Shown here piece after piece: positions 2,726-30,914 of a stretch of 64,000 nucleotides of DNA. A model generated the notes under the pieces. That model was not told the origin of the DNA. It saw nothing but the letters and a program-made list of their open reading frames with translations, and did not search any database. Positions within the stretch are counted from its first letter, which is position 1; every line of letters starts with the position of its first letter. Where the stretch lies: NCBI GenBank assembly GCA_039621445.1, contig CP154954.1, positions 3,353,715 to 3,417,714 of the forward strand, read 5' to 3'. The stretch is from Euglena gracilis (lineage: Eukaryota). The translations under genes were made by a program, and so were the position numbers.

Positions 2726-2809
2726 GCACATCCTCGTAAACGCGATGGTGGCTGTTGGTAGCTGGGAGTCCAACAGAAAAATAAACAGAGTAATCGCTCA
2801 GCCCTGGCC

Positions 2810-2908
2810 GAAGTTGCCGACGAGACACTCGCCAGTGTGGATCCCTGCACGGAACTTCAGCAGTGGCAGGCCGCCCGCCCGCCACGACATATGCAGGTCC
2901 ATGACGCT
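2810..2908 (-). CDS. Cyclase exon 23 (SVMDLH...RAGIHTGECLVGNF)
   Basis: RxGIHTG..VGN motif; CTGctgct| and |ggcCAGGG. Confidence 0.95.
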
Positions 2909-5900
2909 AGCAGCAGGGTCAGCCGAAAGCCCAAATGCTTTCCTTTGGCACAGACTCTGGATGTCTTGGTTACCATTCGGTGGATTACATGTGTCTTGTA
3001 ACTTCACTGCAGGCAGCAAAGGGGTTTATTCATCTCAGAGCCGCTGGGTGGAGGTCATTAAATGTTGGCGTTTAGTTTTTGGGGCAGGGAAAAGACATTG
3101 AAAAACAAGCTGAAAAGCGCCGGCAACACATTTTCACTGGACACTGGTATGACGCTTTTCACCAAACACTGCGGTTTGAACGGGTGGATGGGTTGTGGGT
3201 CACTGGGGGGGGGGGTCCAGTGGCCCACAATCCATCCACCCGCTCTGAGGTGGGGTGTGCCATGAGTCAGTTTGGCCAGGTCAAACTGATCTGTTTTCAA
3301 GGGTTTTCAGTCAATTTTGGGTGGGCAAGGTCCCCAAAGAGGGATGAGGGTTTTTTTGCCCCCCCCCCTCCTGTAAGAGGGAGAGAGTTCTGTTTCGTAG
3401 GATGAAATATGGGGGTTGAGTGGCCGCCCACACATTGCCCTGAACCTTGAGTGGTGCATCCCTGCTGCCTGTTGCGTGTCAGCACGTTGCCATCATGTTA
3501 GGGAAGCGTTTGCGTGCGAAAGTTGGCATAAACTTGATGGGCTTTTTAAACAACGTTCATGTGTTCATTTGTTGTTGTTTTGGAATTTTCCTTGAAAATT
3601 GTTTACAATATGAAGTATGTGCTACCACCTTTCAATTGTAAGCAGAAACACATGCCCTAAAAGAATCACCCCCCCCTGGGAACCGAGAAACCTGTACACC
3701 TGGGGAGGGGGGGGAAGGACTTTCCAGCGTGACACGACAGCCGGTAGGTACGAGCCCCAAGGTGCCAACTTCCCTGGGGGCGGGGGGGGGGAGGTAATGT
3801 GTGGCGTCGCCCTGGGGGGCCTGCATCGCCAGCGAGGCGGCCACAGCGTCCCCTCTCGGGCCAGGCCAGCCTCAAATCAACCGAGCAAAAAAACAACGTT
3901 CCACCAACATCGCCATGGCGCAGCCCCGCGGTGGGGCAACAGTGGGGGGAGGGGGGGGGGCACTTCTTCCCCTTCTGGAAGCACAGAGTTTGAATGTCCA
4001 GGGACCACGAATCTCCCGCTCTGGTCAGCGGGGGGGAGGGTAGTTGAGGCTGAAATGAGGCCCAACCTTTGCCCCAACTGACCCATTGGGACCTGCCCAA
4101 TCCTCACGCAGATCTATTCCGACCGCCACCCCTGAACCCGGATGCCATGCTTCCAGCCGGCTTTTCCAGCGGTCAGAATCACAGAAGGTAACCGCATTGA
4201 CTGCCAACCCCCACTGCGTTGGATGACCCCTCACTCCATCGTATCTGGTTGCACTGTTTTTTTTATATTTTAGAGAGTTGCTGATCTTTCCAGCCTTTCG
4301 GCTGGGTTTTCGTTGAATAGTATATTGAGATTTGGGGGATAGCCAGTTCTTAGAACTGGCTATCCACCCTGGGAAGCTGTCCTCTGGGTTTGTACCTAGC
4401 CCCCCCCCCCACAGGGAAACTGTCACCTGACAGGTTGTCCGGTGCCGGGGACCCTGCCAAATCCCCATCATGCTGGTTTGCTCCGACCCCACAGCAAGGC
4501 AGGTCACCGCCGTCCAATTACCATATCCTGACCCCCCCCAGGTCCGGACTCGCAAGATTGGCATCACAGGGAGTTGGCCCCTGCCAAAATATCTGTGTTT
4601 TTGGGGGGGCAAAATCGGTCCCAAAAAACGCCGGGTGAAGTGAACTCTGTTCGCTGGTTTGGCCATGTGAGGGGCCATTTGGGGGGAGTACAACGTTAAA
4701 TGGGTTGCACATGACCGGAGAGCGGGACAAAATGGCGATAATGCAGCAGGGAAATGCCCCAACGATCAAGCAGCCTAAGCTTCCAAAGTGCGAACTACGG
4801 AGCTGTTGATGCAGTCGCCGATGAACTTGTCAATGGTGCCGTTGTGCTGCACGATGTTGGGTTGCTGGGCCCCGCACGGCTGTGCCAGAAAAACTGGTGG
4901 AGAAGTAGACCCCTCCAGGTTGGGATATACGCTTTTATCTGATGATTATGTGGGTCTTTGGTCTGTCATTACAATTATTGACCATTGTTGGTGGCTGTGC
5001 TAAGGATCAGCTTTGAAAGACAAGCATTCTCCGAGTGGGTGACAACGTGGTGTGGGTAGGAAAAGTCACTGTCCGCATTGCCAAATGATGGCGAATGGTG
5101 AAGACCTCCCTAATACCCCACCTCCCTTTCCTGCTGATGAGCCCTTGACTTGTTCTGACCCCTCCCCTGCCCCAAGAAACTGTCACCTGACGAGTCAGCA
5201 GGGTGACAGGTCAGGAGAGCGGCCCAAAATGTATGGAATTTTGATGATTTGTTTGGATTTGGAGTCATTGGTGGACGCTGCGATGGGGAAGCCTCACTCT
5301 CTCCGTGAATGCAAGGGAGGGGAGGGGCTGAATTTCCTCCAATTTTGGGTGAGCTCCCTCCAAGCGTGTCTTTTTGGGGGGTATAAGGCTTTCCACCCTG
5401 AAAAAAACTAGTAAGGAACTTTTTCCCAAAAAAAAACCAGTCAGTCGCTTTGCCCCCACCCCCCCCCCCCTGGGGGGATCGGCCACTCTTGAATGCGCTC
5501 ATGTCGCTCATGTTGGCAAGGCAATATTGCCAAAAAGTTTCAAAAAATTTCCGGCGCCTTCGGCGCCAGGCCAGCTACTTTTCATTTTCAGGCCTACCCC
5601 ACCCCAGGGGGGGGGGTCTCTTGGCCTGAAAACCAGCTAGTCACTCTGAAAAAACCAGTCAGTCCCCCCCCCCGGTGGGGTGGGACAGGTATTAAGCAAT
5701 GGTATGATAAGGACAGGTCTGCAAGTACTGGACCAGAGGACAGTTTCCCAGAGGCCTACCTTAGAAGACATTGACAATTTTTGTCCCTCCAGTCGACACA
5801 AAAAAAAATCGAAACTGCGGGGGGTTCACAAATTTGTGATCAGAAGCCGGATAAAAATGAAAGCAATTATTTTGGGAAATTGCTGTTTTCAACATCTTTA

Positions 5901-8900
5901 CAACAATCTTTGACTGCCCTTGGAAAATAGACACCTGAAAATCTTTTAAAATTCCAAGATGCCTTTAAAAAATTTAAACCCTTAAAAAAGCCTTAAATAA
6001 CCCTAAAAAAAAATGAAAATTTTAGTCTTAAAGATAATAATGCACCCATTACGCACCCGTGCAAAGAAAAATCCTTCGGCGCCGAAGGAACTTTTTGACC
6101 TAAGAATCGGTGCCTCCGGAAATACGGAAAGCTCTGGAGGGTGGGCTCTTTGTGGTTCCACACCATGGTGTCACGGTTCTTTTAAAGGTTGACAGGGAAG
6201 GCATTTTCACACGGCTTTCCGGGAGGAGCTGCCAACAGATCCCCCCTGGGAAACTGTTCCCCCCGGGAAAATGTCCTCCACCCTCTGTGCCCGCTCACCC
6301 TACAAGGGACTACAGAAATCCCCGAAACCCTGTGGGTGGTGGGGGGGGTCGACTGCCCCCCCCCATCCTGGCGGGTGGGAGGGGGAATAACAGGGGGACG
6401 GAAAAAGGATTCTCGAAGGACAAAGAAATGGGGGAAAGAAAAAACACACACAAAAACACATAAACACTCACACACAAAACGACAGTTACATGAAAATTGC
6501 TTCTAAAGAAACTGCCTGGGATGCATGATGTCTGCTGGAGAGGTTATATGTTCTGCAGTAAGGTGCATGTTTTGGACAACTGTGCCAATTTTCCTCTCAA
6601 AAAATCTAAAAGGATGATCAAAAACAGCAAAAAAAAATCCAAATTATGTAGAAAAATGTGCATTTAAAGAAAATGGTCTTGATATGTACCCGCCCCCCCC
6701 CTTGTCGTACGACCGGGTTGCTGCAACCTGTGACCGGGGGGGGTCGTAACACCCCCATAACCTGCAACCTGTGACTGGGGGGGGGGGTCGTAAATGCGGG
6801 GGCGGTCGTAGGTGGTGTTAAAATTTTCGCAACCTGCAACCTGTGACCGGGGGGGGTGGTCATAACACCCCCATGACCTGCAACCTGTGACCAGGGGGTG
6901 GTCATAATGAGGGGTGGTCGTACGACAGGGGGGGGGGGCGGGTAGGTGATTAAGAATTCGGAACATTTGTTGCCAAAGAAAAAGGGGGGGGACACAAAGA
7001 ATGCGAAACACACAGATTTCCAAAATAAAAAAAGCACAAAAAATGCAAAAAAAAAAACAAGACGTGTTTGTTCACACATGCCTCTCCCTCCACTGGGAAT
7101 GGGACTTGGGCGCCAAGAAGTGAGGCTCACTGCCAAGAAGGGGCCCAAGGCGCTGCACATGGCCTCGAAGTACTCCGTGCACACGGAGACCAGCGTGGCG
7201 GGGGTCTCCTTCTCACAGATGGTGGAGAAGCCCTCGATGTCCGTGAACATAATGGTCAGTTTCTCAGCAGCAGGCACCGCTTTGGTGCTATCCCACTGTA
7301 TTGGCCATTCCCCGCTGACCCGATACACCGAATGGAAACTAAGAAAGGAAAAAAGAACATAAAACAAAACGGTGGGGGAAAAAAACGATCAAGATAAACT
7401 GCAACGGTCATTTTGTACGAGTGTTCGTTGTAAAATTGTGAAATGGTAGCTTCCATTGCTGTCGTTCCGCAGCCAACATTTCATAGGGCTTCAAAGGTTT
7501 GTGGTGCTGAACATCGCTTTCATTCAAGGAAAAAAAGCACCAAGCAACAAGCAGCAAAGATTCTCACCACCAATCGTCCAGTTCCTTTCCAGACAAATGC
7601 TGGCCTGGTTGGGGTACATTTGATCGTTTGCCTGCATTTTGCCAGCAATCAAAACCAGTCCCCGGGTGGATGCAAACGTCTCAAAAGAACCAAACAACAC
7701 GCCAAATCATGGAGGAAAAGCAAGGGTGACAGCAAATGAAATTTGCAAAGCATCACTGCATGCCGGAACCACGCAATCACTGCATTGTTAAACAAACATA
7801 AAACTCCCCCTCACCTTTTGTGCTGTACACCTGTGGACAAATATTTATTTTCTATTCAGATTTCGTGGTTCAACTGTGGACACCCAAAAAAACTGTTGTG
7901 GCTCAAAAGTATCTTGTGAACCACATTACATACATGTCTGCCCCACCACGCTTCCAGCCAACACTGACCTCACCAGATCGTAATGCAGATGCTTCTGATT
8001 CCTTCCCTTCATTTAAATCACAGACAATCAAGGGGCATGACAGCATGCGACAACGTTGGAGAGGGGGATGGGGACACGAAGCCCTTCTTTCCTGCGGAGA
8101 AAAAAATGCAAAGACAAACGGGTCTATTTGCTGGCTGCATCGAAAGGAGTTCCATCCCAGTCACGTCGCAAGGTGTGGCAATGCCCATACAAAAAGAACT
8201 ACTCAACCAACCCACAGTTCAGCCGGGAGGCTGCCCAGCACTTTCACCACCGCCTGCGGCACGAACTTCCCATGCAGGGATTTTTGGGACAGGTCTGAGG
8301 GGCTGGTGAGGGGGGGGACCCCTACCTGACACACCACAGCACTGCGAAAATAAAAATTCAAAATTCCTTCGGAGAGAGAAGGTGCCGAGAAAAAAATGAT
8401 GCGGCCTAAAAAACGGCACCCCAGAAATAGGGGAAGGCCTGCAGGGGGGGGGGGGGCGACCCCCCCCCACCCAACCACCCATGGGGTTTGGAGATTCCCC
8501 ACAGCCTTGGGTGGATTGGGGGGAGCCGACAGCTGGGTGGACCTGGGCTGGAACCAAGAAATTGCCCACATCTGTTCCATATGGTATTTGCCACAGTTTT
8601 GTCCCGAACCTTTTTAAAATGGGGGGGGGCACTTCTCCCTGGACCCAAACCCACGCACCCGCCCATTTTTTTGGAAAACCCACCCACCCACGAACTCCCC
8701 CCCCCCGGGATCAACCACCCATCCACCTAACCTCCCACACAAGCAAATTCGGCGGAAAACGCCGAAAAGCGTTTTCCGGCCTTCGTCTGGGCCAAAATCT
8801 GACCCAAGACTCAGGAGGGGGTGGTTCGAATCCACCCACCCACTCTCGAAAATCCCCTCCCCAGGGCGGGTGGGTTCAGCCAGATGATAAGTGAACCTAT

Positions 8901-11900
8901 GCTCCAAATCCCTCAACGACGCCATTTTCGACCAATTCGGGCCATTTCCCCCAAGGTTTTTTGGTGCTTTGCACCGTGGAGTTTCAGCTTGCTTGGCCGG
9001 CTCTGGGGGGGGGGAGGGTAGATGGACGGCCGCCAAGCTCGGCTGCCCGGTCTGAAACTGCGCGGGCTACCACCCCCGGGGAAACTGTCACCTGACAAGT
9101 GAACAAGTACAGAGCTAGGTGACAGGTCCCTTTGTGAAAGTGCGGGCGAGTGGGTTTTGGCCCATGGGCGACAGTTTCCCGGGGGGGGGGGGGGGGGCAG
9201 CCGCACCCTGGCCAGGGAGGGGCTGGGGCACCTTGGTGTGAAAAAGTCCCTGTTCCCAAACGCCCGCAGGCCGCGCTCCATCTGGGTGAAGGAGGCCTGG
9301 AAGCGGTGTAGCTCCCGGAATCAGGGAATCACTCAGTAACCACAGGGGTGGCGGCATTCCTTCCCAAACCCAAAACCCACCCACCCACTTTTTTTCCCCG
9401 AAAACCCACCCCCTCCTTCCCCGACACCCACCCACATACACACAAAACGCAGCATCGGCCGAAAACGCTGGAAAAAGTTCCAGCCTGGCCCTAGGGGCCA
9501 GAAATCCACCCACCCACCCTCCCCCCCCCGGGTGGGGGTCACAATGCTCCAATCCCTCAACGCCATTTTCGACCGGTGGGTTTCCCGGTGGCCGTGCAGC
9601 TGCTTGCGGCGTATCCACCCCTCTTCCCCCCCCCCCCCCCCCAGGTAGGTGTCGGTGAATTTGGAAAACGTGGTGAACTCGGAGGTAGGACAGGTGGGCG
9701 CTTTTCTGGGGGTCCATGCGGGCCCCGCCGCTCCCGGGGGGGGGGGGGGGGGTGTGGGGCTGTCACCGTTCCTGGCGCCGCCCGGGGCCACTAACGCGGA
9801 CAGAGGGGGTGGAGGCCGTGGGGGGGGGTGGCAAAACAATCAAACCACCGACACCCCCCCCAGGTCGGAACCCCCGCCGGCCAGGCCCCCCCCCGCAGGT
9901 TGATGCGGCGCCCCCAGCCTCCACTATGCGGGGCGGGGGGCCTTCAGCAAAAAAAAAAACCGGTCCCTGTGCATCCAATGCAAAATCCACAAGGGAAAAA
10001 CGGCCGGGAAAACAGGCCATATTTTGGCAAAACCAGGCCACTTTCGGGGGGGTAAAAAAAAATTCTGGCATCCTTGGGCCATCAACAATCCAGCCAAAAA
10101 TTCAAAAATGTGTTTTCTTTTCATTTTTTTTTTTCATTTTGACCCAATTCAAGCCCGCCCGGCCAGCCTCAGGCCAGGGTCCTCAGGTGGCAGAGATTGG
10201 GTGTGAATGGATTTCCCGATGTCAAGGGTCAGGAACTCTGATTTGGGGGGGGGGGGCACCACCTCAACCTGAGACACCCCACCCCTAAACTAGGGGGCCA
10301 TGACATAAATTTAAAAAAAAAACTGGAAACGTTCCCCAAGACAGAGGTTGCCTGTGACAGATGTGAAAGCATACTTTTTACTAGGTCACAGGCCAAATAG
10401 GCCACAGATCAGAATAATAATTCCCAAGTCCCATTCCTTGGAAATATGTGATTAATGGCCAAGAGATGATGCCATTTTTGTTGCACAGAAGCTGGAAAAA
10501 AATGCCGTTTCAATGGCAAATGCTATCAATATTATCAAATACCATCATGGTCGGTGGGTACAGCGGGTGGAGGATATTTCCCTGGAGCTCACAGATTGTG
10601 CAGACGACACTCTCCCCTCCCCTTGCTGAAAATTGCCGCCCGACAAACCTGTAAGCTCAAACCTGAGTGATAACAGGGGGCCCTGTCGTGAACCTTCCCA
10701 CAGGACAAGTCAGCCGGTCAGACACCCCTCCCTCCCCACGGCGACAGCCTCCCAGGGTGGGCACGCTTCTTTTAACGACCCCAGCAAGGGAGGGGGAGGG
10801 GACCCCCCCAAAATCAGGCCATCTGAGGGCATATCCAAAAAAAATGCGCTTTGTGCTGTAACCCATACCTGGGACTCTGGCCTGGGACCCCCCCCCTGGC
10901 CCCCGGGGATGTCCAGCCCTGGACTCCCCCCCCCCCGGGAGGGTCTACTGAGTTGAAAAGAAGCCTGGTGGGCCACACCCTCGTAGGCATGGGCGGACCC
11001 CTGGGCCCCCGCGCCAGCGCGTGGAGCCGCGTCCCCAGCCACAGCCCCACGCCGAGGGGCAGGAGGACCGCCACAGCGCTGACCGCCCCCAGGATGGCGA
11101 CCCGGGGCGGGGGGCTGTGGGGGGGGGGCACGCATCCGCCGAGCCATGGTGGGCCGGGGGTGTACGGCGGGGTAGCCACCGACCATGGGGGTTCCGCTTT
11201 CGACACAAAGATAAAAAAAGAAAAGAAAAGAAAACCACCCAAACAAACCAAGCAGTTGCCGTCAGGCGTTTGCCATGGTCGCTGGGCCGCGTAACTACGT
11301 AAATGCCAGCTGGCTAAAAAAAAAAACATGACTCGTGTGATGCCAAAACCACACAACACTATTTTTGGAGTGCTTTTCCAAGCTTTTCTAGTCCCTCTGA
11401 ATTAGTCTGGTCCCCCCCTCCCGTCCAGGAATACCCGCTTTGTTCGAAGAAAGACAGTGTCATTGGACATTGATGGAACTTCACATGGATGAGGATGACA
11501 TTCAAGTGAAGTTCGGCTGTTCCTTTGACTCGTTCAGCAGGTCAGGATCTCACACCTGAAACATATTGAAGCGTGGAGTCTTCACGGGGTAAAAGAAAAG
11601 CACTTCCGGCGCCTTTTGGGGAAGAGGTCAAACCTGAACTAAATGCAATTCCAGAGACAATCGTTCAGTTCCCCGGCTGTGACGCCCTTCTTGTCCGACA
11701 CGGACTGGTCCACTTGAGCGTTAGTGGCATCAATGCTTCCCATTACCGACGCCCGGTTCTTCAGCATCAGCACCGTGCACTGCAGGGTGCTGCTGGGCTG
11801 GAGACGAACCACTGCTTCCACACCCCACACCCCCGCACCATTGTCCACCAATGAATATCAATTTGTTGGCTTGGTCATCCTGAAGAAACCTCATCAGGGG

Positions 11901-18669: not shown

Positions 18670-18713
<44 letters not shown>

Positions 18714-18882
18714 TACATACATACATACATACATACATACATACATACAGACATACATACAGACATACATACATACATACAGACATACATACATACATAC
18801 ATACATACATACATACATACATACATACATACATACATACATACATACATACATACATACATACATACATACATACATACAT

Positions 18883-18931
<49 letters not shown>

Positions 18932-18995
18932 TACATACATACATACATACATACATACATACATACATACATACATACATACATACATACATACA

Positions 18996-19027
<32 letters not shown>

Positions 19028-19145
19028 CATACATACATACATACATACATACATACATACATACATACATACATACATACATACATACATACATACATAC
19101 ATACATACATACATACATACATACATACATACATACATACATACA

Positions 19146-19176
<31 letters not shown>

Positions 19177-22100
19177 GTACGTACGTACGTACATACATGC
19201 ATGCATGCATACAACCCCCGCACCACAGAATTTTCGCAAATTTTGGGTTAACGGGGATTTTGGCTGGGGAAATTTTTTAATTTTTTTTGAAAAATGACTG
19301 CATACTGTACATGGTTTTTTAATGGAAAACCACATTTTTTCACAAAAAAGTCTCAACGATTTCAGGGTTAAAAATTGGTAGTTTTTAGGGGGGGGGTGGA
19401 AAAAACAAACGAAGGTCAAAAAAAAGTGCACCAAATTTTGGCACAGTCAAAACTGACATTACTGACATTTCTTCTCTTCGAATTTTTTGGGCTTTTCAAT
19501 GGCACTTTTTTGCTTCAAAAACCTTCAAAATCAAAATTTTGAGAAATCGTTGAATTTTTGGAAGGCGTGAAAAAATGGGGTTTTGGGGGTTTTTTGGGAG
19601 GTCCCAAAATGGGTCAAAAAAAATATTTTGGGAATAAAATTTCGGTCGAAAAAATTGGTCCTCCCGGAAATACGGGAAGAGGTGGTGGGGAGGGGTGGTC
19701 GAACCCCCCACCCACCACCCTGGCTGTTTGGCCGATTCCCGTTCTGCCCTGGGGGCGGGTATCTCCTCTCCTCGCACTCCTGAAGGGGGCACTTGGCCAT
19801 CCGGGAACCCGGCCAGCTCGCTCTGCAGCTGGTCGCTGAGGGTCGCCGCCGCGATGTTGATCGTCAGCAGCATCCACGTCCCGTTCTGGGCTGCGAACTG
19901 GGCTTAGGGGCCGACCCTCAGGGGTATTTTTAGGACCCAAGGCGGGGGGAGGGGATCCGGACCCACCCACCCACCCACCCCGGGGGGGCAGGGCAGAACG
20001 GGAAGGCCTGGTGGGGGGAGGGGTCGACCCGCCCACCCGGGAGGTGGGGGGGGGGGGGCAGGTCACGGGACGTGGGTTCGTGGGAGGTTGGGTCGCCACG
20101 GCCCAACCAACAACGGTGATTTGGTTGGGTCACGGTCGGCCACAGCCAGCCACGGCCGGCCGCAGACCAACCCAAAAAAGTGATTTGTTGGGCCGCGGCC
20201 CAACCAAAATGACAATTTGGTTGGGCGGCAGCCAGTCGCGACCCAACCAACCTCCCACGAAGTTTCCTCCCGTGACATCCCAGCCGGGGTGGGGGGTCGA
20301 CCACCCACTACAGCATTTTCACCAATTTTGGGGAAACGGGGGTTTAAGCCAGGGAAACTTTTTGAATTTTTTTCTGAAAATTGAACCCCGAACACATGGT
20401 TTTTTGATGGAAAACCACATTTTTTCACAACCAAATTTTGGCTCAATCAAATTTTACTGAATTTTGGATTTTCAATGGCATTTTTTTGCTTCAAAAAATA
20501 CTCTCAAAATCAAAATCTTGAGAAAATGTTGAAATTTTGGAAAGTGTGAAAAAATGGGGTTTTGGGGGGTTTTTGAGGCGTCCTACATGGGTCCCAAAAT
20601 GGGTCCAAAGTACACCCGGCGCCAAAGGCGGCGGGGAAAAAAATTTTGGGTCCAAAAAATGGTGCCACCAGAAAAATGGGAAGCGGTGGTGGGGGGGTGG
20701 TTGACCCCAGGCTTGTGCTTACCGACCGGGGGGGTGGTATAGGGTGCCTGCCCCTGGCAGGCACATCCCCCCCCCGGTTCCGGGGGGTTCCGGGGGTTCC
20801 GGTGGGGACCCAGAAAATTTTTATTGAAAATGGCCTTTTCTGTGTCCCCGGCGCCTTTGGCGCCGGGGTCGGAGGGGGTGCCTGCTATGGGCAGTCACCC
20901 CCTCCGACCCCGGCTTGGGTTTTGGGGGGTGCCTGCTATGGGCAGGCACCCCCCAAAACCCAACCCCCCCGAAGGGGGGGTCGGATGGGGTACTATGGGT
21001 GCCTTCCCCTAGCACCCCCCCCCCCTGTGGGGTAGGCGCCCGACTAAGCAAAAGCCTGGTCGACCCCCCCACCCACCACCCTGGCTGTTTGGACGTTTCC
21101 CGTTCTGCCCTGCCGGGGGGGGGGGGTCGAGGACCCGTTCTGGGGGGTCGATTTTGGGTGCCAAAAAATTTTTTTCGCCGCTTTGCTCCGAAAATAGAGC
21201 ACTCCCCGCCCCCAGCAGGGGCCAACCCGGGGGGGCTGGCCCCAAAGAGGGCTCAAAATTGTAAAAGAGCAAAAAAAATGCCCTTTTACATCACTTTTAA
21301 GCACCTTGCATCCTGGTTCCATGAGGGGCCACAAGCCCCGGGGTAACGGATGCCACGGGCCGGCCCCTGTGCTCTGCCGGCGGACCAGTGCCACTTGGCC
21401 CGTCCACTTGTTGAACGCCATCGTCGGCAGCCAGCCGTTCTCCCATTGCGGCAGCTTGGGGCCCGGCGCAACTCTTGGGGGGGAGGGGGAAGGGCGGGTT
21501 GCCACACTGACAACGACTGAGCCCCGGGGGGGGGGGGGGGGGCGTGGGCAGGGAGTTGAGAAATCGAAGACGAGGACGAGCAAATGTGCAACCCAATAAA
21601 TGTGTGAAAATATGTGTAAATGTGTAAATGTGTGAAGGTGTGACCCCAAAAAAAAAACTCTGATGTTTGTTTTGAATTTTCTCCAATTTAACGAACAACA
21701 ATGTGCGGGTATGGATGAGGTTTGAGGCTGGCTGGATCCATGGCCTGGAGGTGTAAAAAATGGATTTGCCACTTTTGCCAAATTTGCCACTTCTGTGGGG
21801 GCTCTCTTGCCATCAACTCCGACAATGCAACTTCCCCACCCGCCACGATTCCTGAGCTGTGGAATATGCTGGGCATCTTGAATATTTTGAGCAGAAAAAA
21901 TTCATTTTCTGACGGCTTGGCCCTCTGTTTAAGATTCTTCAAATCACACACAAATCCCAGGGTCTTCGGGTACTCAAACCCCATCTTAAGCATGAGCATG
22001 GTCAAAAAAATGGGCTTTGAGGGTGGGGCCTGTCGTAGTAGGCAGAGGGAGCGGGTTGAGACGCAATCAAGCGCGTTGGCTTTCCTGTGATCTGGTCCAC

Positions 22101-25100
22101 CTGCGTCACGTTGCTTTGTGGGTCCACACTTTGTCCGCAACCCTAAAAAAATGCATCTGTCAAAACGTGCGGCTTCAATTTTCTTAAATAAAAAAACAAG
22201 GATGGATTTGGAGGAAGGGATGGAAACAGAGATGAAAAGTAATACAACGAACAGGAGTTTCTTCCAAAAGAAAATAATATTTTTATTTCAGGAAACAAAA
22301 CTTCTCTTTTGCTTCTTTCTTCTTTCAGGAACGAAAAGCATTTGTTGCAATAAAAAAAAACAGAGAACGGAACAATTCAGGGCGGCCCCAGCCCAGAACT
22401 GACACCTTTTCATTGGCGGCCATCGCCATTGGGGTGCTGTACACTGTGCGGTTCCCGAAGGTGCTGTTGAGGAAAGTGTTGTAGAACGCCACGAACGTTA
22501 CAAAGAAAGTGGGGATGTAGGAACCAGGGGCAGGGGCAACACGAAACCTTGGACGGGTGACCAGACACATTGCTTTGAGTTGAAAGAAATGCAGCGCGAC
22601 AGAAGACTATCCTCAAAATCCATCAACAATCTGATTTATATGACCACAGGTGAAAAATTTGGCAACGTTTTGCCACGTTACTAATCTAACACCAACCAGA
22701 AAAACACAAAGCCCCCCCCCCGCCAGGTTGAGCTCCCCAAGGGTGCAAATAAGGGCCAGGCGATGAATTTTTGGGGCGGATGTTGCGACTTTTCAAAAAG
22801 AATGATTTTTTATGCCCCGGAAAGTGAAAAAGCCACTACCATGCAGCCACCCGAAGAGTGGCTGGAAATAAATAAACCTAAATAAACAAACAAAGGAAGC
22901 AAAAATCTCAGGGCCGGAAGAAGGCAGCTGGCTGGAAAAAGGCTGCTGGCTGACCCCCAGGGTCAAGTTTTCTTGCCCTGGGGGCAAGAAAACCAAAAAA
23001 AATGGGCCAAAAAAATAGGACAAAAATGCGCGAAAATGGGTCAGATTGAGATTGGAAAAATTTGGGGCCAAAACCCTATTTGTTTTGCACAATTGGCAGT
23101 TTTTTTTGGACATTTTTTTGCGCTTTCAATTTTTTGGTACCTAGTTCGACCGTGGGCCGGCCCCTGCTCCAGCCTGGGACCTCTGGGGGCGCGGGAGGGT
23201 CAGCCAGCAACCTTATTCCAGCCATCCCAAATTTTTCACCCTCTGAGCTGGACCCCCTGGGGCTTGTTAAAAAAAAACACCCTGGTGGCAACTGCAAGCA
23301 GTCACAGTATTTGCATATGTGTTTGCGCACATGTTGTTGCATATGTATTGTGCACACTGTCGGAAACTTTCTTGAATGTTTCTCTGCTCCTGTCATCAGA
23401 TGGATGCAACCAATCAAAATATTATTTCTAATAAAATATGTAATATAAACCCCCCCCAAATATAAAACCCCCCCGGTTTTATAATTGGGCGGAAATTTCA
23501 AGACCCCGAGGGGGGGTTTTATATTTGGGGGGGGGGTTATATTCGGTCGGAAAAATCAACTTCCCGGTGGGCTGAAGTAGACACTTTTTTGGTCTAAAAT
23601 AACAAATACGCCCACCCTTGGGGGTCCAAAAACTTCATTTTTCGGGCGAAGGAGCAATTTTCACATGTTTTGGTAAAAATTGTTCCCAAATCTGCCAAAA
23701 ATGACAATTTTGGGAGAAATTTTGTCGAAAATTTTTCCTTCCGGCGCTTCGCGCCGGAGGGGGGGTTTTATATTTGGGCGGGATTTCAAGGTCCTCAGGG
23801 GGGGTTTTATATTTGGGGGGGGTTTGTATTTGGGGGGGGGGGTTATATTTGGGGGGGGGGTTAGTATTGAACACAGGGCTGGATTGAGGTTTGCAAAAAA
23901 ACCTCAACCTCAATGTCGACAACCTCAACCTCAACCTCAACCTGAAAGTCGCCTCAATGTCCAAAAAAAATGAGAAAATTGAACTCACAAAAAGCATCAA
24001 CTGGACAATCTCTTCTTGAAAACCCTTCCTCAAAGACAAGTTTGGTAAGTTTGTGTCAACGCACAACATATTCGGTTTGGAAACAAGAATAAATGCGTGG
24101 GTTGGTGATTTTAAAACTTGAGATAAATGATGAATTGCTCAATTTTTTGAAAAAATCCAGGTAACTTGCAAAGTTTTTGTTATTGACTCTTTCTCCTTTG
24201 AATTTTGACCAAAAAGTGACATTGAGGTATCATTGAGGTTGGAAAACCTCAACGGATGTGTATTTGGGATTTTTTGTAGAGAGTATTGGGTCGATAGGGA
24301 ACAAGGCTCGTAATTTTGCCTCAAACCCCATCCAATCGTCCCCATATTCCCCTTACTCAGCCCCCTCAGATCACACCATTGGGCCTTTGGGCCTTTAGAG
24401 GAATCTGTTTTGCCAACCCCTTTGGCGTAAACCCCTGATACAAAGTCCTTCAACACCATACATAAACCCGCCCCCATTGAATAACCTGGTCATATACAGT
24501 ATGCAGAAAATTCCTTCAAAAATGCCTGGGGATGTGCTCTTTTCTGCAGGAGAAGACGTCGAAAAGTTTCCACCTTCTCCTTAAAAGGAAAAATGTTTCA
24601 TCGTGCATTTTTTATGTAGATTTTGGGAGCATCCTGGATCGAAACATGTGCCATTTGAGGGCAAAAGCCACAAATGACAAAACTTTAACAAAAAAAAAGG
24701 TCTAGGGGGAAAATCAGGGCCAAAATGCAGAATTTCTCAAAGTCAAAAAAAATTCCAGCAAAAATCAATAAACCAGCGGGGAAAGAACAAAAATCCACAA
24801 ATTTTGGCAATATCAAAAACACAAAAAACAAAATGAGTTTGCATCCCACCCTCGCAATATGACCCGCCAATGAGACCCAGCTTTTATTCTCCAGGTGGTC
24901 AACTTGACTTTGACACCTGAATGCAACTACACCTACCTCACCTTGCACGTCAGAGGGACCATGTGACACCTCCCCAGCAGGAAAATGACAACCTCAAGAT
25001 GGGACAGGTACACATTTGCAAACACCATTCGAAAAATCACCGGTTAAAAGGCGAATTCCACACCTCAAAGAAGAAGATGTGAAAGGTTGTGGAGACGTTC

Positions 25101-28100
25101 ATCAAAAGAGGAAGTCGCGCCTGGTCATCCGTGGGGTCCTGGAAACTGCCTATCACCGACACCTGGGAGAACACCGGGTGGCCTTGCATTACGGTGAAAG
25201 TCTGGCCAGTGAAAGCGGCTGCCTGGCACCCCTGCCCTCTTCCAGACACAGGCAAAAACAGCACTGGCACACACAAACATGGTATCCACTCCAGAACCAT
25301 CAGGACATGGCCACCTGAAATGGCACTAAGTCCCAATACAACTCATGCTGGAGAAGAGAACGAAAAAACAACCATGTCTCCGCCCACATCAGAGACGGGC
25401 CAAATACCAAAGATCTATTTAATACCCCTGGGGAGGGGGGTCCACACCCCACCCACTCAGCCCGGTGCAGGACCCCGCCAGGCGGGGGGGGGGGGGGTCC
25501 GGCCCTGGACCCCCCCCCCATCCCCCCCACCCTGGGGGTCTTCTGACTGGACAAGTAGCCTGCCAAGTAATCTTCCTCGATTGGGTTTGAACAAAAAGGG
25601 AGCGGAGAGGGTTTATGACTGGTGGGGGGGGGGGGTATTCCACGATGCAAGTCATATAACTCCCTTCGGCTTCGAATGGTGTAAACGGAAATTTGTAAGA
25701 AAGCATGCAATGCTGTTGGTCTGGAAAAGTATTTCAGGCGAAACCAAATGGAATCACAACTTTACCAGGAAATTTGAAGAGACTTTTGTCACAAGTTTGT
25801 CAGAAAAAAACAGGCACAGGGATTTCGGCTCCGGGTTGGGAATAAAGAATATGATACAAAAATAAAATAAAAATCTGATATTATATTAGGATAATCATTA
25901 ATAATATAATGCTATGATACAATAATGATGTAAAAAAAATAATTATGAACTAACATAATAAAAGATTGAAAAATAATAACACAGTAAGAACATTGCTGGG
26001 CCATGCGGCTGACCAGTCTGAGTCCAGGACACAGGGACTTTCCAATCCCATTGCCACCAGGGGCAGAAGTGGGCAGACCCAGCCGTGGGATATCGAATCG
26101 CGGCGGGCGAAGGTCGTTGCCAGGGCCCTGCGCTCTCAATGCGATTTTGTTTGCATTTGCCCCGGGCTAGTGGTCAGGGCCAATGAGTTCTTTCTTCGCA
26201 ACCCCAAAATCAACCAAAATTCCATCCTGGAAAAGGGGTCCACGCAAGAACCATGAGCCAGTGGCTACCCAAACGTGGTCGATACAAATCCAGGCTTGTT
26301 TTTAGCCCCCCACCCACCTTGCCCAGCGCAGGACCCAGGGGGAGGGGGGCTCCCAAAAACCGCGCCGTGTGAGGCCATTTCCCAAAGAATTTCTGGCACT
26401 TCGTGCCGAAACCCATAACCAGGCATCTGGCCCAGGACCCCCCCCCCCCGCGGGGTCCAGCCCCGGACCCATCCCCCCCCAGGGGGGTCTTTTGACTTAA
26501 AAAGACTTAAAAAGAAACCTGTGCCCAATCCCACCATCCTGCAAAAACACCTTTTCTTTGTCAAAGAAGAAAAGCAGAGGGATCAGGAACATGTTCAGGG
26601 TCATTGCCCGCATGGACCACATCTTCCAAAAAAAACACATGTGTAGTAACCCAGGACGCCAGCAGGCAACTGGCCATAGGCCAGCACCCCACTGCCCTGC
26701 ACCATCAACGACAGCTCCGTGTTCTCACTCTCGCCCTCCGCCAGCAATGCATCGAACCGGTCAATCGATTGGTTCGATTCCAGGGTGGGGATAGGGCATT
26801 GGGGAGGCCAGTTTGTGAGCAGGGGAGGCAGCGGAGGGGCAAAAAGGCAAAGCAGGTTGTTATGCAAAAACATGCAAAAATCATGCAAGGCCAGAAATGC
26901 AAGTTCTGAATGAAATTCTGGAGAAACCTTCCGAAACTTCAACAAAAAAAATCTCAATCTCTTTTGGGTAAAAAAGCATGCATACTTACATCCCATAAAA
27001 AATCAAAATAAATGCAAGAATGCATAGAAAAAAGAACAGGATGGAATACCAAAAAAATGGTTGCAATGCATGTCATTTCGATACCCTGCATATCATGATA
27101 CAACTTTTACCTTGCATAATTTACAACAAATTGTGACATGCTTTTCAAAGCAGCAAAATTGCAATAATGCTATGCTGCACAATACTAAAATAAAGAACAA
27201 AAAACTAAGGGAACGGAATCCCTAAGGAGCAGATTTCTGTTGGAGATTCATATTCTTTTCAAAAATTGTGAGGTCGAAAAGAGATTATGCAAAAAAAGAA
27301 AATTCTCCCAGATACATATTTTCTTGAATTGTTCAAAAAATAAACCAATTTATGAAACAACATAATTTTCCCTCCTGCCCTCTGTTGAATGTCTGGGGGG
27401 ATCCACCTCAACCTGGACATCAACACACCCACGATGTTCTGGACCATTGAGTCCATGGAGTCCTGCGTGGTGCCTCGCAGCAGGTCCACAGAGGACGTCA
27501 TGAGGTCCATAAATACCACCCAGATGACGATGGCCGGCACTAGCGACAGGGCGAGGGTTGACACTTGGCAGCGTTGCCTGTCTGCATGGGAAGCAGCTGT
27601 CCGCAAACTGTCCGAATTCCAAAAAAAAATTACTCGGGCCAAAGGGTCCATTCGAGCTCAGGATAAGACCCAAGGGGAACGCTGTGGATGGCAAAGACAC
27701 TGGAGATCAGGCAGTAGACTTTGGTCATTTTGACCCCCTCCCCCCCCCCCTATGGTGAAGTTCACCGTTTGAAAGTTCACCGGGGGGTCCCGGACCCCCT
27801 CCCCCCCCCCCTCTGCCTAACCCATCGGTGAACTTCACCGGTGAAGTTCACCAGAGAGCACTTTTTGGGCCAAAATGGCCAAAAATGACATTTTTGGGCA
27901 AGTTTTCGGAAATTTTGATTAAATTCCACGAAGCATAAACTTCAAAATGACCGTTTTGAGAGGAAAGGAGCAAAATTTCACCAATCAAAATTTCACCCCG
28001 AACCATCAAAACAGTGAAGTTCACCGGTGAACTTCACCGGTGAACTTCACCGCCAAAAGTACCCCCCCTCCCCCCCGGTGAACGTTCACCGGTGAAGTTC

Positions 28101-28634
28101 ACTGGGGGGTCCACAGCCCCCCCCCGTACTGCCTAACCTCCACTGTGCTGTTCCTGGGCGCATTTGCATAAGAAAAAACAATAGGTGCAAGTATGGCACA
28201 ACAGACAACACAAAGGACGCCCCCAAATGGAGAGATGGAGGCCCCACTGTTGACTGCCTCCAACAGGTGCTCCCAGGGTCGCATATTCCGGGGGAGGTGG
28301 GCTTACAGCCACCCCCCCCCCCCGCCCACTGACCGGGTCACGGTCGGGGGTTCCTACTGACCAGGGGCGGGGCGGGGGGGGGGGGGGGCGTACACGCCCC
28401 CCAATCTACAACCCCTGACCAGGAGGGTAATTGTACGCTCCTCCTTACCTACAACTCATGACCATGGGGTGTCGGTGGGCAAATGGGTGGGGGGGGGGTA
28501 CAAGAGAGACTGAAGCGGGGGCGGAGAAAACCTGCTGCGAATCAACAGAAAAATCCAGTCCATGGGCTGGGGAATTGGAGACCCTGCCAGGGCACAAGGG
28601 TCAGTACAAAGGTGAACGGGATGCGGATCTCCAT
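2810..28634 (-). CDS. Multi-exon receptor-type adenylate cyclase (class III nucleotide cyclase), 3'-partial
   Basis: Exons join in frame: MEIRIPFTFVLTLV-STLALSLVPAIVIWVVF (TM1), extracellular domain, VAILGAVSAVAVLLPLGVGLWLG (TM2), HAMP-like RELHRFQASFTQMERGLRAFGKFVPQ, cyclase motifs LTIMFTDIEGFST, IDKFIGDCI, FRAGIHTGECLVGNF. Lys in KFIGD points to ATP specificity. Two internal exons are garbled. Confidence 0.9.
3818..3916 (-). CDS. Cyclase exon 22 (MAM...DAVAASLAMQA), internally disrupted
   Basis: Ends fit the family and paired intron termini; the middle has an in-frame TGA and the expected W-N is in a shifted frame. Confidence 0.7.
4808..4858 (-). CDS. Cyclase exon 21 (NIVQHNGTIDKFIGDCI)
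   Basis: KFIGD motif; upstream intron TTGGGCCCC/GGGGCCCAG stem. Confidence 0.95.
6689..6942. mobile_element. MITE with TA TSD and internal CCTGCAACCTGTGAC repeats
   Basis: TIR CCCGCCCCCCCCCTTGTCGTACGACC / GGTCGTACGACAGGGGGGGGGGCGGG. Confidence 0.8.
7152..7265 (-). CDS. Cyclase exon 20 (EKLTIMFTDIEGFST...EAMCS)
   Basis: First metal-binding Asp motif of class III cyclases. Confidence 0.95.
7611..7650 (-). CDS. Cyclase exon 19 (IAGKMQANDQMYP)
   Basis: CTGgtttt| and |aacCAGGC pairing with GCCTGctgct|. Confidence 0.8.
8237..8269 (-). CDS. Cyclase exon 18 (KFVPQAVVKVL)
   Basis: Typical pre-catalytic K(Y/F)VP motif; +4/-8 spacing on both sides. Confidence 0.9.
9075..9186. mobile_element. Small MITE GGGAAACTGTC...GACAGTTTCCC (relatives near 4415, 5177, 5738, 6248, 17135)
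   Basis: Inverted termini and dispersed copies. Confidence 0.6.
9256..9316 (-). CDS. Cyclase exon 17 (RELHRFQASFTQMERGLRAFG)
   Basis: HAMP helix 2; |gaaCAGGGA pairs with TCCCTGcatgg|. Confidence 0.9.
9600..9720 (-). CDS. Probable cyclase exon 16 (HAMP middle), garbled
   Basis: Traces ATGGAC..GCCCACCTG..GAGTTCACC where an MDxIAxLxF-type segment is expected; no clean frame. Confidence 0.3.
10762..10967. mobile_element. hAT-type MITE (CAcGCTTCTTTT...AAAAGAAGCCTG)
   Basis: TIR shared with 26291-26520 and 38623-38827. Confidence 0.7.
11007..11102 (-). CDS. Cyclase exon 15 (TM2, VAILG...HALARG)
   Basis: Hydrophobic helix followed by |gccCAGGGG. Confidence 0.85.
11679..11803 (-). CDS. Cyclase exon 14 (LQPSSTLQ...SDKKGV)
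   Basis: |agcCGGGG pairs with CCCCGccccg|; joins T-VAILG in frame. Confidence 0.8.
12429..12478 (-). CDS. Cyclase exon 13 (RQEVLLTGQRYWVATGY; 3' boundary approximate)
   Basis: Preceded by a 15-bp intron stem; in frame. Confidence 0.75.
13309..13335 (-). CDS. Cyclase exon 12 (27-nt micro-exon QSWTAIPEM)
   Basis: Both flanks have +4 CAG / -8 CTG spacing; phases match. Confidence 0.85.
   Translation of the reverse strand, partial: SPGRPFLK
13827..13987 (-). CDS. Cyclase exon 11 (ASHGKYF...LLYGRY)
   Basis: GC3-rich; |ggcCAGGGGA pairs with TCCCCTGtcccc|. Confidence 0.9.
14861..17062. mobile_element. Foldback-like element with long imperfect inverted arms
   Basis: About 15290-15845 is the reverse complement of about 16410-16975; outer AAGCTTAACCCC / GGGGTAAGCTT. 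Confidence 0.65.
17475..17968. mobile_element. hAT-type MITE
   Basis: TIR CcGGGGTTTTCTTAA / TTAAGAAAACCCTG; imperfect 8-bp flanks CTGATTTC / CTAGTTTC. Confidence 0.8.
18234..18280 (-). CDS. Cyclase exon 10 (DRLVLFFRQPNGYMI)
   Basis: |accCAGCG pairs with CGCTGcccgc| 4.2 kb away; phase matches. Confidence 0.85.
18365..19212. repeat. (TACA)n microsatellite with (CA)n patches, about 850 bp
   Basis: Direct reading. Confidence 0.98.
19799..19891 (-). CDS. Cyclase exon 9 (AQNGTW...LAGFPD)
   Basis: |ggcCAAGTGCCCC pairs with GGGGACACTTGcagga|. Confidence 0.85.
19989..21112. mobile_element. hAT-type MITE, nested in another MITE (about 19919-21284); partial second copy at 19221-19751
   Basis: TIR CAGGGCAGAACGGGAA / TTCCCGTTCTGCCCTG; CCGGGGGG flanks. 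Confidence 0.8.
21344..21457 (-). CDS. Cyclase exon 8 (KLPQWENGW...WHPL)
   Basis: Coding-like; downstream intron CGGGGCTT pairs with AAGCCCAG; may contain a 24-nt micro-intron. Confidence 0.7.
22035..22100 (-). CDS. Cyclase exon 7 (VDQITGKPTRLIASQPAPSAYY; boundaries approximate)
   Basis: Open frame between exons 6 and 8, followed by gaCAGGCCC. Confidence 0.6.
22385..22525 (-). CDS. Cyclase exon 6 (GSYIPTFF...VSVLGWG; 3' boundary approximate)
   Basis: CTGcccct| at the 5' side; coding-like GC3; 3' junction unclear. Confidence 0.75.
23446..23863. mobile_element. MITE related to the 22-2275 element termini
   Basis: TAAACCCCCCCCAAATATAA / TTATATTTGGGGGGGGGGTTA with multiple subterminal repeats. 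Confidence 0.75.
25127..25213 (-). CDS. Cyclase exon 5 (FTGQTF...FQDPTD)
   Basis: In frame; |gacCAGGCGCGAC pairs with GTTGCCCCTGcccct|. Confidence 0.8.
26080..26115 (-). CDS. Cyclase exon 4 (DLRPPRFDIPRL)
   Basis: CTGgcaac| upstream; downstream intron CTGCCCACTTCTGCCC pairs with GGGCAGGGGTG..GGCAG. Confidence 0.7.
26291..26520. mobile_element. hAT-type MITE
   Basis: CAGGCTTGTTTTTA / TAAAAAGAAACCTG. Confidence 0.7.
26676..26775 (-). CDS. Cyclase exon 3 (NQSIDRF...GVLAY)
   Basis: Phase-compatible; flanked by CTGgaatc| and |ggcCAG. Confidence 0.85.
27419..27561 (-). CDS. Cyclase exon 2 (STLAL...NIVGVL, TM1)
   Basis: Hydrophobic ORF segment; downstream intron gtcCAGG...CCTGgaatc. Confidence 0.85.
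27732..28112. repeat. MITE-like unit with many GGTGAA(G/C)TTCACC palindromes
   Basis: About nine copies of the palindrome. Confidence 0.7.
28593..28634 (-). CDS. Cyclase exon 1 (MEIRIPFTFVLTLV)
   Basis: ATG at 28634; joins STLAL to give a continuous TM helix; intron ends TGGCAG/CTGCCA pair. Confidence 0.7.
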
Positions 28635-30745: not shown

Positions 30746-30914
30746 TATATCTCTCTAAAATATTATGCATGTGTGCATAGTATATACAAACATACCATGC
30801 CCCCCCCACCGAGCCCTGAGCTATTCCTGTCCCAAGAACCTTTACGTCTCATTGGGAACACTGCGGGGGGAGGGGGGGGGACAGCTCGAGGTGGGACCTA
30901 GGTGCCCCACGAAG

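Follow-up and report, generated by a model that had tools for sequence, protein, structure and literature searches.

Nonconventional introns of a Euglena cyclase gene and probable hAT-like MITEs with corresponding ends from one stretch of DNA: putative excision from RNA of elements that duplicate 8 bp

The origin of the nonconventional introns of euglenids and the mechanism of their removal have been a question since the 1990s. According to the available text of the published accounts, these introns follow a noncanonical splicing code, 5'-N3CDG-/-CH'GN5-6↓R, where the arrow marks the junction (Nomura et al., 2025, PNAS; Milanowski et al., 2014, 2016), with CAG and CTG at positions +4 to +6 and -8 to -6 and a pyrimidine followed by a purine at both junctions (PMC4770533). 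In knock-in mutagenesis the N3 spacer was strict and the N5 spacer tolerated 5-6 nt, as given in the accessible part of that work (Nomura 2025, PMC12501133). In E. agilis nonconventional introns make up 71.8% of ~650,000 introns. An origin from MITEs, with 'TSD-like' repeats, was put forward by Milanowski in 2014 and repeated in 2016, 2018, 2024 and 2025, and it stands in print without an example of a free element; in the available text of Milanowski 2014, transposable elements are said not to have been identified in euglenids. A published young case is intron 4 of gapC in E. agilis ACOI 323, a strain-polymorphic, recently gained nonconventional intron whose junctions carry direct repeats of eight nucleotides (Milanowski 2016, in the part available). 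Direct repeats flank conventional introns too, and were counted at 84.4% of all introns. In the accessible passages of the MITE-origin papers we found no duplication length, no named superfamily and no link to the spacers, and in the literature at hand nothing that connects the 3- and 5-nt spacers with an 8-bp or hAT duplication; the supplements of Nomura 2025 and Milanowski 2016 could bear on this point.

A related system is that of the introners, transposon-derived spliceosomal introns of Micromonas, dinoflagellates and other lineages (Mob DNA 2024, PMC11282704). There too a DNA transposon that has TIRs and makes a duplication turns into an intron when it inserts, and part of what exact removal requires comes from the duplication. 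Introners differ in that the spliceosome removes them and their sequence families are recognisable, whereas the introns considered here belong to a separate nonconventional system, in which removal would be measured from the TIR stem.

The window analysed here (the whole stretch of 64,000 nucleotides, to which all positions refer) carries on its minus strand a class III adenylyl/guanylyl cyclase-like gene, in which at least 22 exon cores were recognised by tblastn with five paralogous Euglena-type proteins (P0001-P0005, PF00211) at 60-90% identity per exon. The 22 cores define 21 junctions, J1 to J21, all of which were placed by homology to the paralogous proteins and not by cDNA. An exact transcript-derived protein for the gene was not found (best identity 89%), and the C-terminal half of the cyclase domain, encoded by its 3' part, was not found in the window, including the region below 2807. 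Between exons 15 and 16 the paralogs carry a mini-exon resembling MDRIAQLQF; the window gave no counterpart, and for this reason J15 was left without an exact boundary.

The spacing at the intron ends can be measured independently of the choice of boundary by subtracting the span from the 5' CAG to the 3' CTG from the intron length, which is set by reading frame and homology. The difference was 8 at 10 of 20 cyclase junctions (J15 left out), and each other value, from -28 to +18, was seen at no more than three of the 20. When the published code was applied as N3-CDG..CH'G-N5-6↓R with the middle bases paired, and a fit was counted as N3/N5 spacing followed by a purine as first exon base, 10 of the 21 junctions fitted. 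Seven of these lie in the top-scoring homology class, and for J2, J5 and J21 the fitting boundary scores 1-6 points below the best class; the non-fitting remainder comprises two degenerate junctions (J8 and J9), one with 3+4 spacing (J18) and eight without a fit. The downstream exon begins with a purine in all 12 fitted introns, this being already part of the filter for 10 of them. The nonconventional introns recognised here lack GT-AG ends and are 345 nt to 4.2 kb long. Inverted repeats that reach beyond the CAG/CTG trinucleotide pair are kept in J12, J8 and J9 (Table 1). In RNAfold predictions for the 36+36 nt ends, made without a shuffled control, CAG pairs with CTG in J2, J8, J9, J11 and J12, and the two are not paired in the minimum-energy structures of J14, J17 and J21.

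Most cyclase introns had originally been read as having this 3+5 arrangement, with 8 unpaired nucleotides outside the stem. The geometry proved real, but the share is about half, and the count of 8 holds whereas the description of these nucleotides as unpaired fails in J12, where the two spacers pair with each other. Judged by sequence, about half of the cyclase introns are of the usual nonconventional euglenid type and obey the published code; the genome-wide share of nonconventional introns that do so in E. agilis is 61.2% in the available text of Nomura 2025. They share with the described introns the positions of CAG and CTG, ends that may pair, the purine at the exon start and the lack of GT-AG, and as introns they differ in nothing; what is added here is the reading of N3 plus N5 as one 8-bp duplication, and the presence in the same DNA of free elements with matching ends.

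Table 1. Positions of the cyclase gene, its junctions and the free elements in the window. An arrow marks the predicted junction, with the first exon base in lower case; 'sum' is the number of nucleotides outside the CAG..CTG pair.
Feature	Position	Strand	Ends and spacers	Remarks
Cyclase gene	2807..28634	-		22 exon cores, tblastn with P0001-P0005
J1	27560-28593	-		no code fit; top-class coordinates
J2	26776..27418	-	GTC-CAG..CTG-GAATC↓g	N3/N5, R; homology score 67 vs best 70; sum 8
J3	26116..26675	-	GGC-CAG..CTG-GCAAC↓g	top-scoring class; sum 8
J4	25221-26074	-		no code fit; top-class coordinates
J5	22526..25126	-	GAC-CAG..CTG-CCCCT↓g	homology score 95 vs 96; basis also sum test
J6	22114-22394	-		no code fit; top-class coordinates
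J7	21459-22035	-		no code fit; top-class coordinates
J8	19900..21372	-	GCA-CAGGGGCCGGCC..CGGCCCCTA-AGCCC↓a	degenerate CAG..CTA; TIR 11/16; TSD remnant 0/8
J9	18281..19798	-	GGC-CAAGTG..CACTTG-CAGGA↓g	3+5 with CAA/TTG; inverted repeat 12/16; GC-AG reading one base off equally possible
J10	13988..18233	-	ACC-CAG..CTG-CCCGC↓a	top-scoring class; sum 8
J11	13336..13826	-	GGC-CAGGGGA..TCCCCTG-TCCCC↓a	top-scoring class; basis also sum test
J12	12479..13308	-	AGC-CAGGGGcTGTTCTTAT..ATAAGAACACCCCTG-GCTGG↓g	TIR ~15 nt with one indel; spacers AGC/GCT complementary, not direct repeats
J13	11791-12421	-		no code fit; top-class coordinates
J14	11103..11678	-	AGC-CGG..CCG-CCCCG↓g	CGG/CCG variant of code; top-scoring class
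J15	about 9323-10980	-		boundary approximate
J16	8270..9255	-	GAA-CAGGGA..TCCCTG-CATGG↓g	8-mers tttggGAA / CATGGgaa, 6/8 identical
J17	7651..8236	-	GGG-CAG..CTG-GTTTT↓g	top-scoring class
J18	7261..7605	-	GGC-CAG..CTG-AGAA↓a	3+4 in top class; alternative 3+5 at 7266-7610 has lower homology score
J19	4860-7152	-		no code fit; top-class coordinates
J20	3870-4799	-		no code fit; top-class coordinates
J21	2909..3817	-	CCC-CAGGG..CCCTG-CTGCT↓a	homology score 80 vs best 86
Eight junctions without code fit or firm boundary (J1, J4, J6, J7, J13, J15, J19, J20)	within 3870..28593	-		top-class coordinates
Free MITE, 172 bp	45932-46103 (with flanks 45924..46111)		TIR CAGGGTTCCCG	flanks ccagtctg at 45924-45931 and 46104-46111
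Second perfect copy of the 172-bp MITE, 171 bp	62728-62898 (with flanks 62720..62906)			same flanks
Nested MITE, 351 bp	20708-21058 (with flanks 20700..21066)		CAGGCTTGTGCTTA..TAAGCAAAAGCCTG	flanks gttgaccc / gtcgaccc
Empty-site paralog of the nested-MITE host sequence	19676..19751			one 8-mer copy
1124-bp element	19989-21112		perfect 16-nt TIR CAGGGCAGAACGGGAA	flanks cggggggg / ccgggggg
Element inside J5	23905-24241		CAACCTCAATG..	flanks 7/8

The window holds nonautonomous DNA transposons with CAGG..CCTG ends that duplicate 8 bp of their target, in agreement with the original prediction, and two independent insertions of this kind were found. The 172-bp MITE has a TIR that is perfect over 11 nt and flanks that are identical at 8/8 positions. 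Its second copy lies within a segmental duplicate of 43232-47206 (4 kb, 98%), and the two copies therefore represent one insertion event, not two. The other insertion is the 351-bp MITE, in which the TIR matches at 11/12 positions and the flanks at 7/8; it is nested in the 1124-bp element, itself inside intron J8, and a paralog of its host sequence, bounded at one end by the 16-nt terminus typical of the 1124-bp element family, has the 8-mer only once and so provides an 'empty site'. The flanks of the 1124-bp element itself also agree at 7/8 positions and are of low complexity.

When all CAG..CTG pairs with a TIR of at least 10/12 were scanned, flanks matching at 7/8 or better were present in 4 of 137, against 1 in a shifted-flank control, and with control ends at the same TIR threshold there were none (0/102 CGG, 0/158 CTG and 0/145 CAC pairs). 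At a looser TIR threshold of at least 8/12, complex flanks of at least 7/8 were found in 4 of 2963 pairs and in 0 and 4 of the shifted controls, that is, with no excess; one of the four matches, at 4431-5182, proved to be a repeated 16-mer and not a duplication. Unfiltered scans for TIRs and TSDs were dominated by TATAC-type satellites, the shifted control exceeding the observed count. A scan of metagenome data for the end pattern of the 172-bp MITE gave two single-end matches on large contigs (L001 and L002), which were taken as chance.

The free elements are probably hAT-like MITEs, a label given because of the 8-bp duplication and the CAG ends. Like hAT MITEs of the Hermes kind they have 8-bp target-site duplications and short TIRs that start with CAG, are small (172 and 351 bp) and lack coding capacity. 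Their TIRs measure 11, 11/12 and 16 nt, with hAT-like CAG.../...CTG ends, and the hAT end consensus is YARNG. They differ from such MITEs in that a transposase partner did not turn up: a Pfam scan of 10 ORFs of the window, five of them among the longest, gave no hAT transposase and only the pogo-like fragments HTH_Tnp_Tc5 and DDE_1. Their own duplications also fit poorly the target pattern nTnnnnAn preferred by Hermes/hAT, ccagtctg agreeing at 0/2 positions and gtYgaccc at 1/2 (n=2, for what is a preference and not an absolute rule). The elements could also belong to another superfamily that makes 8-bp duplications.

The arithmetic that links these elements to the introns is sound: cutting out 3 nt, a CAG...CTG element and 5 nt deletes the element together with one 8-bp copy. 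Remnants of such a duplication were sought by comparing the last 5 exon and first 3 intron nucleotides with the last 5 intron and first 3 exon nucleotides. Over 12 introns the 8-mers were identical at 37 of 96 positions, against ~28 expected (P=0.04); without J16, at 31 of 88 (P=0.20), and the remnant signal therefore rests on one intron. The 6/8 match originally given for J16 was recovered, and the other 11 introns score 0-4/8. The exon flanks tend towards the hAT target pattern nTnnnnAn: T occupies exon position -4, which would be position 2 of the putative duplication, in 6 of 12 introns (P=0.02), exon +2, putative position 7, is A in 6 of 12 (P=0.014), and intron +3, putative position 8, is C in 9 of 12. 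A tendency to R-A-C at the start of the downstream exon is also on record, with A at +2 in 43 of 55 and C at +3 in 30 of 55 introns in the accessible part of PMC4770533; with a register of five positions before the cut and three after it, R-A-C at exon +1 to +3 corresponds to duplication positions 6-8 and becomes comparable to nTnnnnAn.

At the level of sequence families no connection was seen. Self-BLAST of the window and comparison of the 16-nt ends gave no family common to a cyclase intron and a free element, and no family-level similarity among the introns of this one 64-kb window; the clustering of intron ends with MITE TIRs that the original prediction calls for did not appear in the window, where CAGG(G) is all that they have in common. 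The suggestion that such MITEs act as introners draws on matching ends, 8-bp TSDs and the spacer arithmetic, and is weakened by the poor remnants and the lack of a shared family.

It is plausible that MITEs are cut from RNA as ready-made introns, a putative route that sharpens a known hypothesis. A hAT-like MITE with CAGG..CCTG ends would land in a transcribed exon and duplicate 8 bp; the splicing system would cut 3 nt before CAG and 5 nt after CTG, removing the element and one duplication copy, so that the pre-mRNA would lose the MITE and regain its original reading frame. Apart from a purine at duplication position 6, the insertion would need no additional splice signal; the 172-bp MITE has a purine at the predicted exon start in neither orientation. 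Many nonconventional introns would have begun as such insertions, with selection acting later only on the CAG/CTG pair and the spacer lengths, while the intron-side duplication halves degenerated along with the remainder of the inverted repeat. That many of these introns originated as hAT-like MITE insertions removed with one 8-bp copy is a proposal for and against which we find the case evenly balanced. With the MITE-origin hypothesis in print it shares the inverted repeats at intron ends and the 'TSD-like' direct repeats. The geometry, the MITE origin and these repeats are already published, and the hAT/8-bp reading is a coherent and testable sharpening of them, not a proven one.

A broader version, about which we are rather more doubtful, sees in the entire noncanonical splicing code of Euglena the fossil trace of hAT integration. 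CAG and CTG would be the transposon ends and N3+N5 one 8-bp duplication cut between positions 5 and 6, which would cover the strict 3- and 5-nt spacers, the pyrimidine-purine step common to the two junctions and the tendency of the downstream exon to start with R-A-C. An RNA-level 'excision' that measures from the TIR stem would have evolved in the host or been recruited by it, making new exonic hAT-MITE insertions silent; such excision would account for the share of 72% that introns of this type reach in a Euglena genome.

The agreement between introns and elements might instead be a coincidence, the 3- and 5-nt spacers being the geometry of the nonconventional splicing enzyme and the CAGG..CCTG elements ordinary hAT-like transposons with no part in introns. 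CAG/CTG ends are common in the hAT superfamily, the intron ends cluster with no free element family, the remnants fall to chance level without J16, the looser TIR scan does not rise above its controls, the 3' spacer tolerates 5-6 nt, and conventional introns are flanked by direct repeats as well. We nevertheless consider coincidence unlikely, as chance would have to account for each of several independent agreements: the identical terminal trinucleotides of introns and elements, the equality of spacer sum and duplication length, the 8-nt repeat of the one documented young intron, and the match between R-A-C at exon +1 to +3 and positions 6-8 of nTnnnnA(C). It is far less probable still that the 3+5 pattern was produced by choosing boundaries among equal or nearly equal homology scores. 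The boundaries do rest on paralogs and, for three junctions, lie 1-6 points below the best class, but the sum test is independent of this choice and peaks sharply at 8, and the same geometry has been established genome-wide and experimentally in Euglena.

The direction of events could also be the reverse, with introns arising by double-strand-break repair or from re-inserted copies of excised introns and the 'free MITEs' being mobilised introns or introns of unannotated genes. Break repair was proposed by the authors of the gapC case (Milanowski 2016, in the part available), the scanned ORFs contain no transposase, and exact excision of 45929-46108 leaves an open reading frame in each of the duplicate copies (180 and 179 nt). 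For the ORF that spans the MITE, however, a search of 1.84 billion representatives gave one match (E=1.7e-4) and no credible relative. The idea that the free MITE is an intron of a coding gene was dropped, the downstream ORF (P0006) having only that match and no Pfam family. Moreover, the 351-bp MITE sits in an element within an intron, where selection for splicing is not needed, and yet has an 8-bp duplication and an empty site; long perfect TIRs combined with a duplication of constant 8-bp length are the mark of integration by a transposase. We regard a reverse or repair origin as improbable.

If N3+N5 is indeed one 8-bp duplication, hAT-like insertion as the source of the introns can be tested with the E. 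agilis and E. gracilis intron sets, strain polymorphisms and the knock-in splicing assay, and would be the first case of an introner-like system that depends on a pathway other than the spliceosome; should the link prove false, the window remains a record of euglenid transposons with defined ends and duplications. On the broader version, MITEs in sense orientation inside introns may themselves be removed as nested nonconventional introns, and the 351-bp MITE within J8, which is in sense orientation, would have a purine at the predicted exon start.

Homopolymer tracts of G or C, satellites and numerous short repeats give the window the character of euglenid nuclear DNA. An exon-sized minus-strand ORF fragment at ~7.1–7.3 kb led to five Euglena-type transcript proteins with a class III cyclase domain (PF00211), to which it was 84–89% identical across the matched portion; none of the transcript proteins retrieved matched it exactly. 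When the five paralogs were compared with the window by tblastn, 22 exon cores were located between 28634 and 2807, all in minus-strand orientation. The copy also reads ...NFGQG followed by a stop at ~2797. The C-terminal part of the cyclase domain (the last third to half) was absent from the window in a paralog search that included 1–2806, and a mini-exon common to all five paralogs (18–20 conserved residues) was not recognised between 9323 and 10980. As both are missing, the gene may extend past the window edge or be a diverged or truncated copy.

All 21 junctions (J1–J21) were predicted from the paralogous proteins: every in-frame donor/acceptor pair near the exon cores was listed, the joined peptides were ranked against the paralogs, and the published code for nonconventional introns (N3-CDG ... 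paired CH'G-N5-6 | purine) was then imposed as a filter. On this basis 10 of the 21 (J2, J3, J5, J10, J11, J12, J14, J16, J17 and J21) are predicted to have three nucleotides outside the 5' CDG and five outside the 3' CH'G, followed by a purine; seven of these fell in the top-scoring class and three were lower by 1–6 score points. J8 (19900–21372) reads CAG..CTA, and J9 (18281–19798) reads CAA..TTG with the 3+5 register retained, a GC-AG intron being the alternative. For J18 the top-scoring class was 3+4, and the 3+5 alternative at 7266–7610 scored lower. Eight junctions either did not fit the code or had an ambiguous boundary. Because the choice of boundary may bias this fit, we also used a boundary-independent measure, subtracting the span from 5' CAG to 3' CTG from the intron length, which is set by frame and homology. 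Of the 20 junctions measured (J15 omitted), 10 gave a difference of exactly 8, and any other value occurred at no more than three. Thus the geometry that the original prediction ascribed to most of the introns is genuine in about half of them. Nor are the eight outer nucleotides unpaired in every intron, as had been proposed, since in J12 (12479–13308) the spacers AGC and GCT pair with each other.

The free MITE at 45932–46103 was as described, with a perfect 8-bp duplication: it is 172 bp long, has a perfect 11-nt inverted repeat (CAGGGTTCCCG) and is flanked on both sides by ccagtctg, a match that extends in neither direction. A second perfect copy, at 62728–62898, has identical flanks and lies within a segmental duplication (43232–47206 and 60021–64000; 4 kb, 98% identity, direct orientation), so that the two represent one event, and the presence of the MITE in both duplicates indicates that its insertion came before the duplication. 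A second, independent insertion was found at 20708–21058 (351 bp, CAGGCTTGTGCTTA.., flanked by gttgaccc/gtcgaccc, with a TIR of 11/12). A paralog of the host sequence, at 19676–19751, carries the 8-mer once, which amounts to the equivalent of an empty site. This insertion is nested in a 1124-bp element (19989–21112) with a perfect 16-nt inverted repeat, whose terminus occurs three times in the window and whose flanks are of low complexity. Among CAG..CTG pairs with a TIR of at least 10/12, the flanks agreed at 7/8 or better in 4/137, against 1 in a shifted-flank control, and in none of the comparison pairs (0/102 CGG, 0/158 CTG, 0/145 CAC). With the TIR relaxed to at least 8/12 the signal was lost (4/2963 versus 0 and 4 in controls), and the case for free elements therefore lies in the quality of the two insertions and not in counts.

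An 8-bp duplication together with CAG ends points to the hAT superfamily. For Hermes, that duplication length and an nTnnnnAn preference are on record (PMC10368747, PMC2803484), a preference that the free elements' own duplications fit poorly. The 10 window ORFs scanned contained no hAT transposase, only pogo-like HTH_Tnp_Tc5 and DDE_1 fragments. Exact removal of the MITE plus eight nucleotides leaves an open frame across 45796–46647 and 62592–63443, despite a 1-nt difference between the elements (180 and 179 nt); as the ORF is without a credible relative among 1.84 billion representatives (one hit, E=1.7e-4), this may be chance.

Duplication remnants were sought in the register originally proposed, by comparing the last 5 exon plus first 3 intron nucleotides with the last 5 intron plus first 3 exon nucleotides. 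The 6/8 match noted earlier for intron 8270–9255 (J16) was reproduced, and 11 other fitted introns gave 0–4/8. The total over the 12 was 37/96, compared with ~28 expected from cross-pairing (permutation P = 0.04, or P = 0.20 once intron 8270–9255 was left out), and "slightly above chance" is fair wording for it. Exon −4 was T in 6/12 introns (P = 0.02) and exon +2 was A in 6/12 (P = 0.014), both being small numbers among several tests; intron +3 was C in 9/12, again a small number. Within the window, intron ends had only CAGG(G) in common with the free elements and with one another.

It is secure that ordinary nonconventional introns occur in one DNA with hAT-like MITEs that have matching ends and 8-bp duplications. 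Milanowski et al. (2014, 2016) had already placed CAG/CTG at +4 to +6 and −8 to −6, and the 3+5 = 8 arithmetic derives from published spacer experiments: in knock-in mutagenesis the 5' spacer had to be 3 nt and the 3' spacer 5 nt, with 6 tolerated, and the next exon had to open with a purine. In E. agilis, 61.2% of the nonconventional introns obey this code (Nomura et al., 2025; PMC12501133). A MITE origin was put forward in 2014 and has been restated since, and a 2024 Mobile DNA review (PMC11282704) terms CAG/CTG a 'TIR' and the junction repeats 'TSD-like'; the portions of the literature on these introns covered here give no duplication length, superfamily or link between spacers and duplication, and literature searches turned up none. 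In the specific form considered here, the introns would have originated as CAG..CTG MITE insertions with 8-bp duplications. On a 5|3 register, each of the two junctions would repeat position 5|6 of the duplication, with positions 6–8 falling at exon +1 to +3. The hAT target preference has A at position 7 (PMC10368747, PMC2803484). Published introns tend to pyrimidine|purine at both junctions and to R-A-C at the downstream exon start, with +2 A in 43/55 and +3 C in 30/55 introns, homologues from six strains being among the 55 (PMC4770533). The single documented recent gain, gapC intron 4, found in one E. agilis strain only, carries eight-nucleotide direct repeats at its junctions, exceeding those of other introns, which the authors read as break repair (Milanowski, 2016). 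An origin from hAT-like MITEs is coherent and fits more facts than the original prediction drew on, and we regard the chances for and against it as about even. With no shared family, weak remnants, no transposase found and splicing of free elements only putative, the window does not establish the link; the value of the finding is that a vague MITE hypothesis becomes a set of sharp, cheap tests using existing data.

The main rival, which we consider rather unlikely, is coincidence, the geometry of the enzyme happening to match a common transposon end. Origin by repair or by intron remobilisation seems improbable to us.

Several other repeats were seen in the window. The TA-flanked MITE-like families look like products of Tc1/mariner/pogo-type TA duplication, not of 8 bp, and the pogo/Tigger-like fragments may be their partners.

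TA-flanked MITE-like copies (inverted ends TACCATGCCCCC.. or TAACGTGACCCC..) and transposase fragments
Feature	Position	Strand
MITE-like family member	30376-30749	
MITE-like family member	39663-39993	
MITE-like family member	47671-48019	
MITE-like family member	50950-51307	
Further MITE-like copy	42055-42196	
Further MITE-like copy	32231-32443	
Further MITE-like copy	34072-34260	
Pogo/Tigger-like fragment, DDE_1 (E=1e-4)	339-725	-
Pogo/Tigger-like fragment, HTH_Tnp_Tc5 (E=4e-7)	37086-37706	+

Direct repeats of 608 bp at 51813–52420 and 56980–57586 (99.2% identical, 5.2 kb apart) start TGTTG, finish ..GACA and have caag on both outer flanks; they look like the LTRs of a putative young LTR retrotransposon, and a 439-codon ORF inside it (55907–57223, minus) had no Pfam match. 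Large blocks of TATAC-type satellite (31000–34300, 36000–36700, 41600–43460 and 60080–60240) overwhelm naive inverted-repeat scans, and long TGTA/TGTG-type microsatellites occupy 18350–19250 in J9 and 2135–2700 below the cyclase gene. Exon 19790–19900 is flanked by outward-facing termini of one family, CAGGGCAGAACGGGAA, at 19736–19751 (−) and 19989–20004 (+), and itself contains a 13/16 match to this terminus at 19878–19893, for which the chance expectation is 0.63 per window. Three cyclase introns share a perfect 16-mer, GAAACTGTCACCTGAC, on one strand (4416–4431, 5176–5191 and 9081–9096), preceded by CAGG, CAA or CGGG; at 9078–9184 it lies within a ~105-bp hairpin element, GGGGAAACTGTC..GACAGTTTCCCC, with G/C runs on either side.
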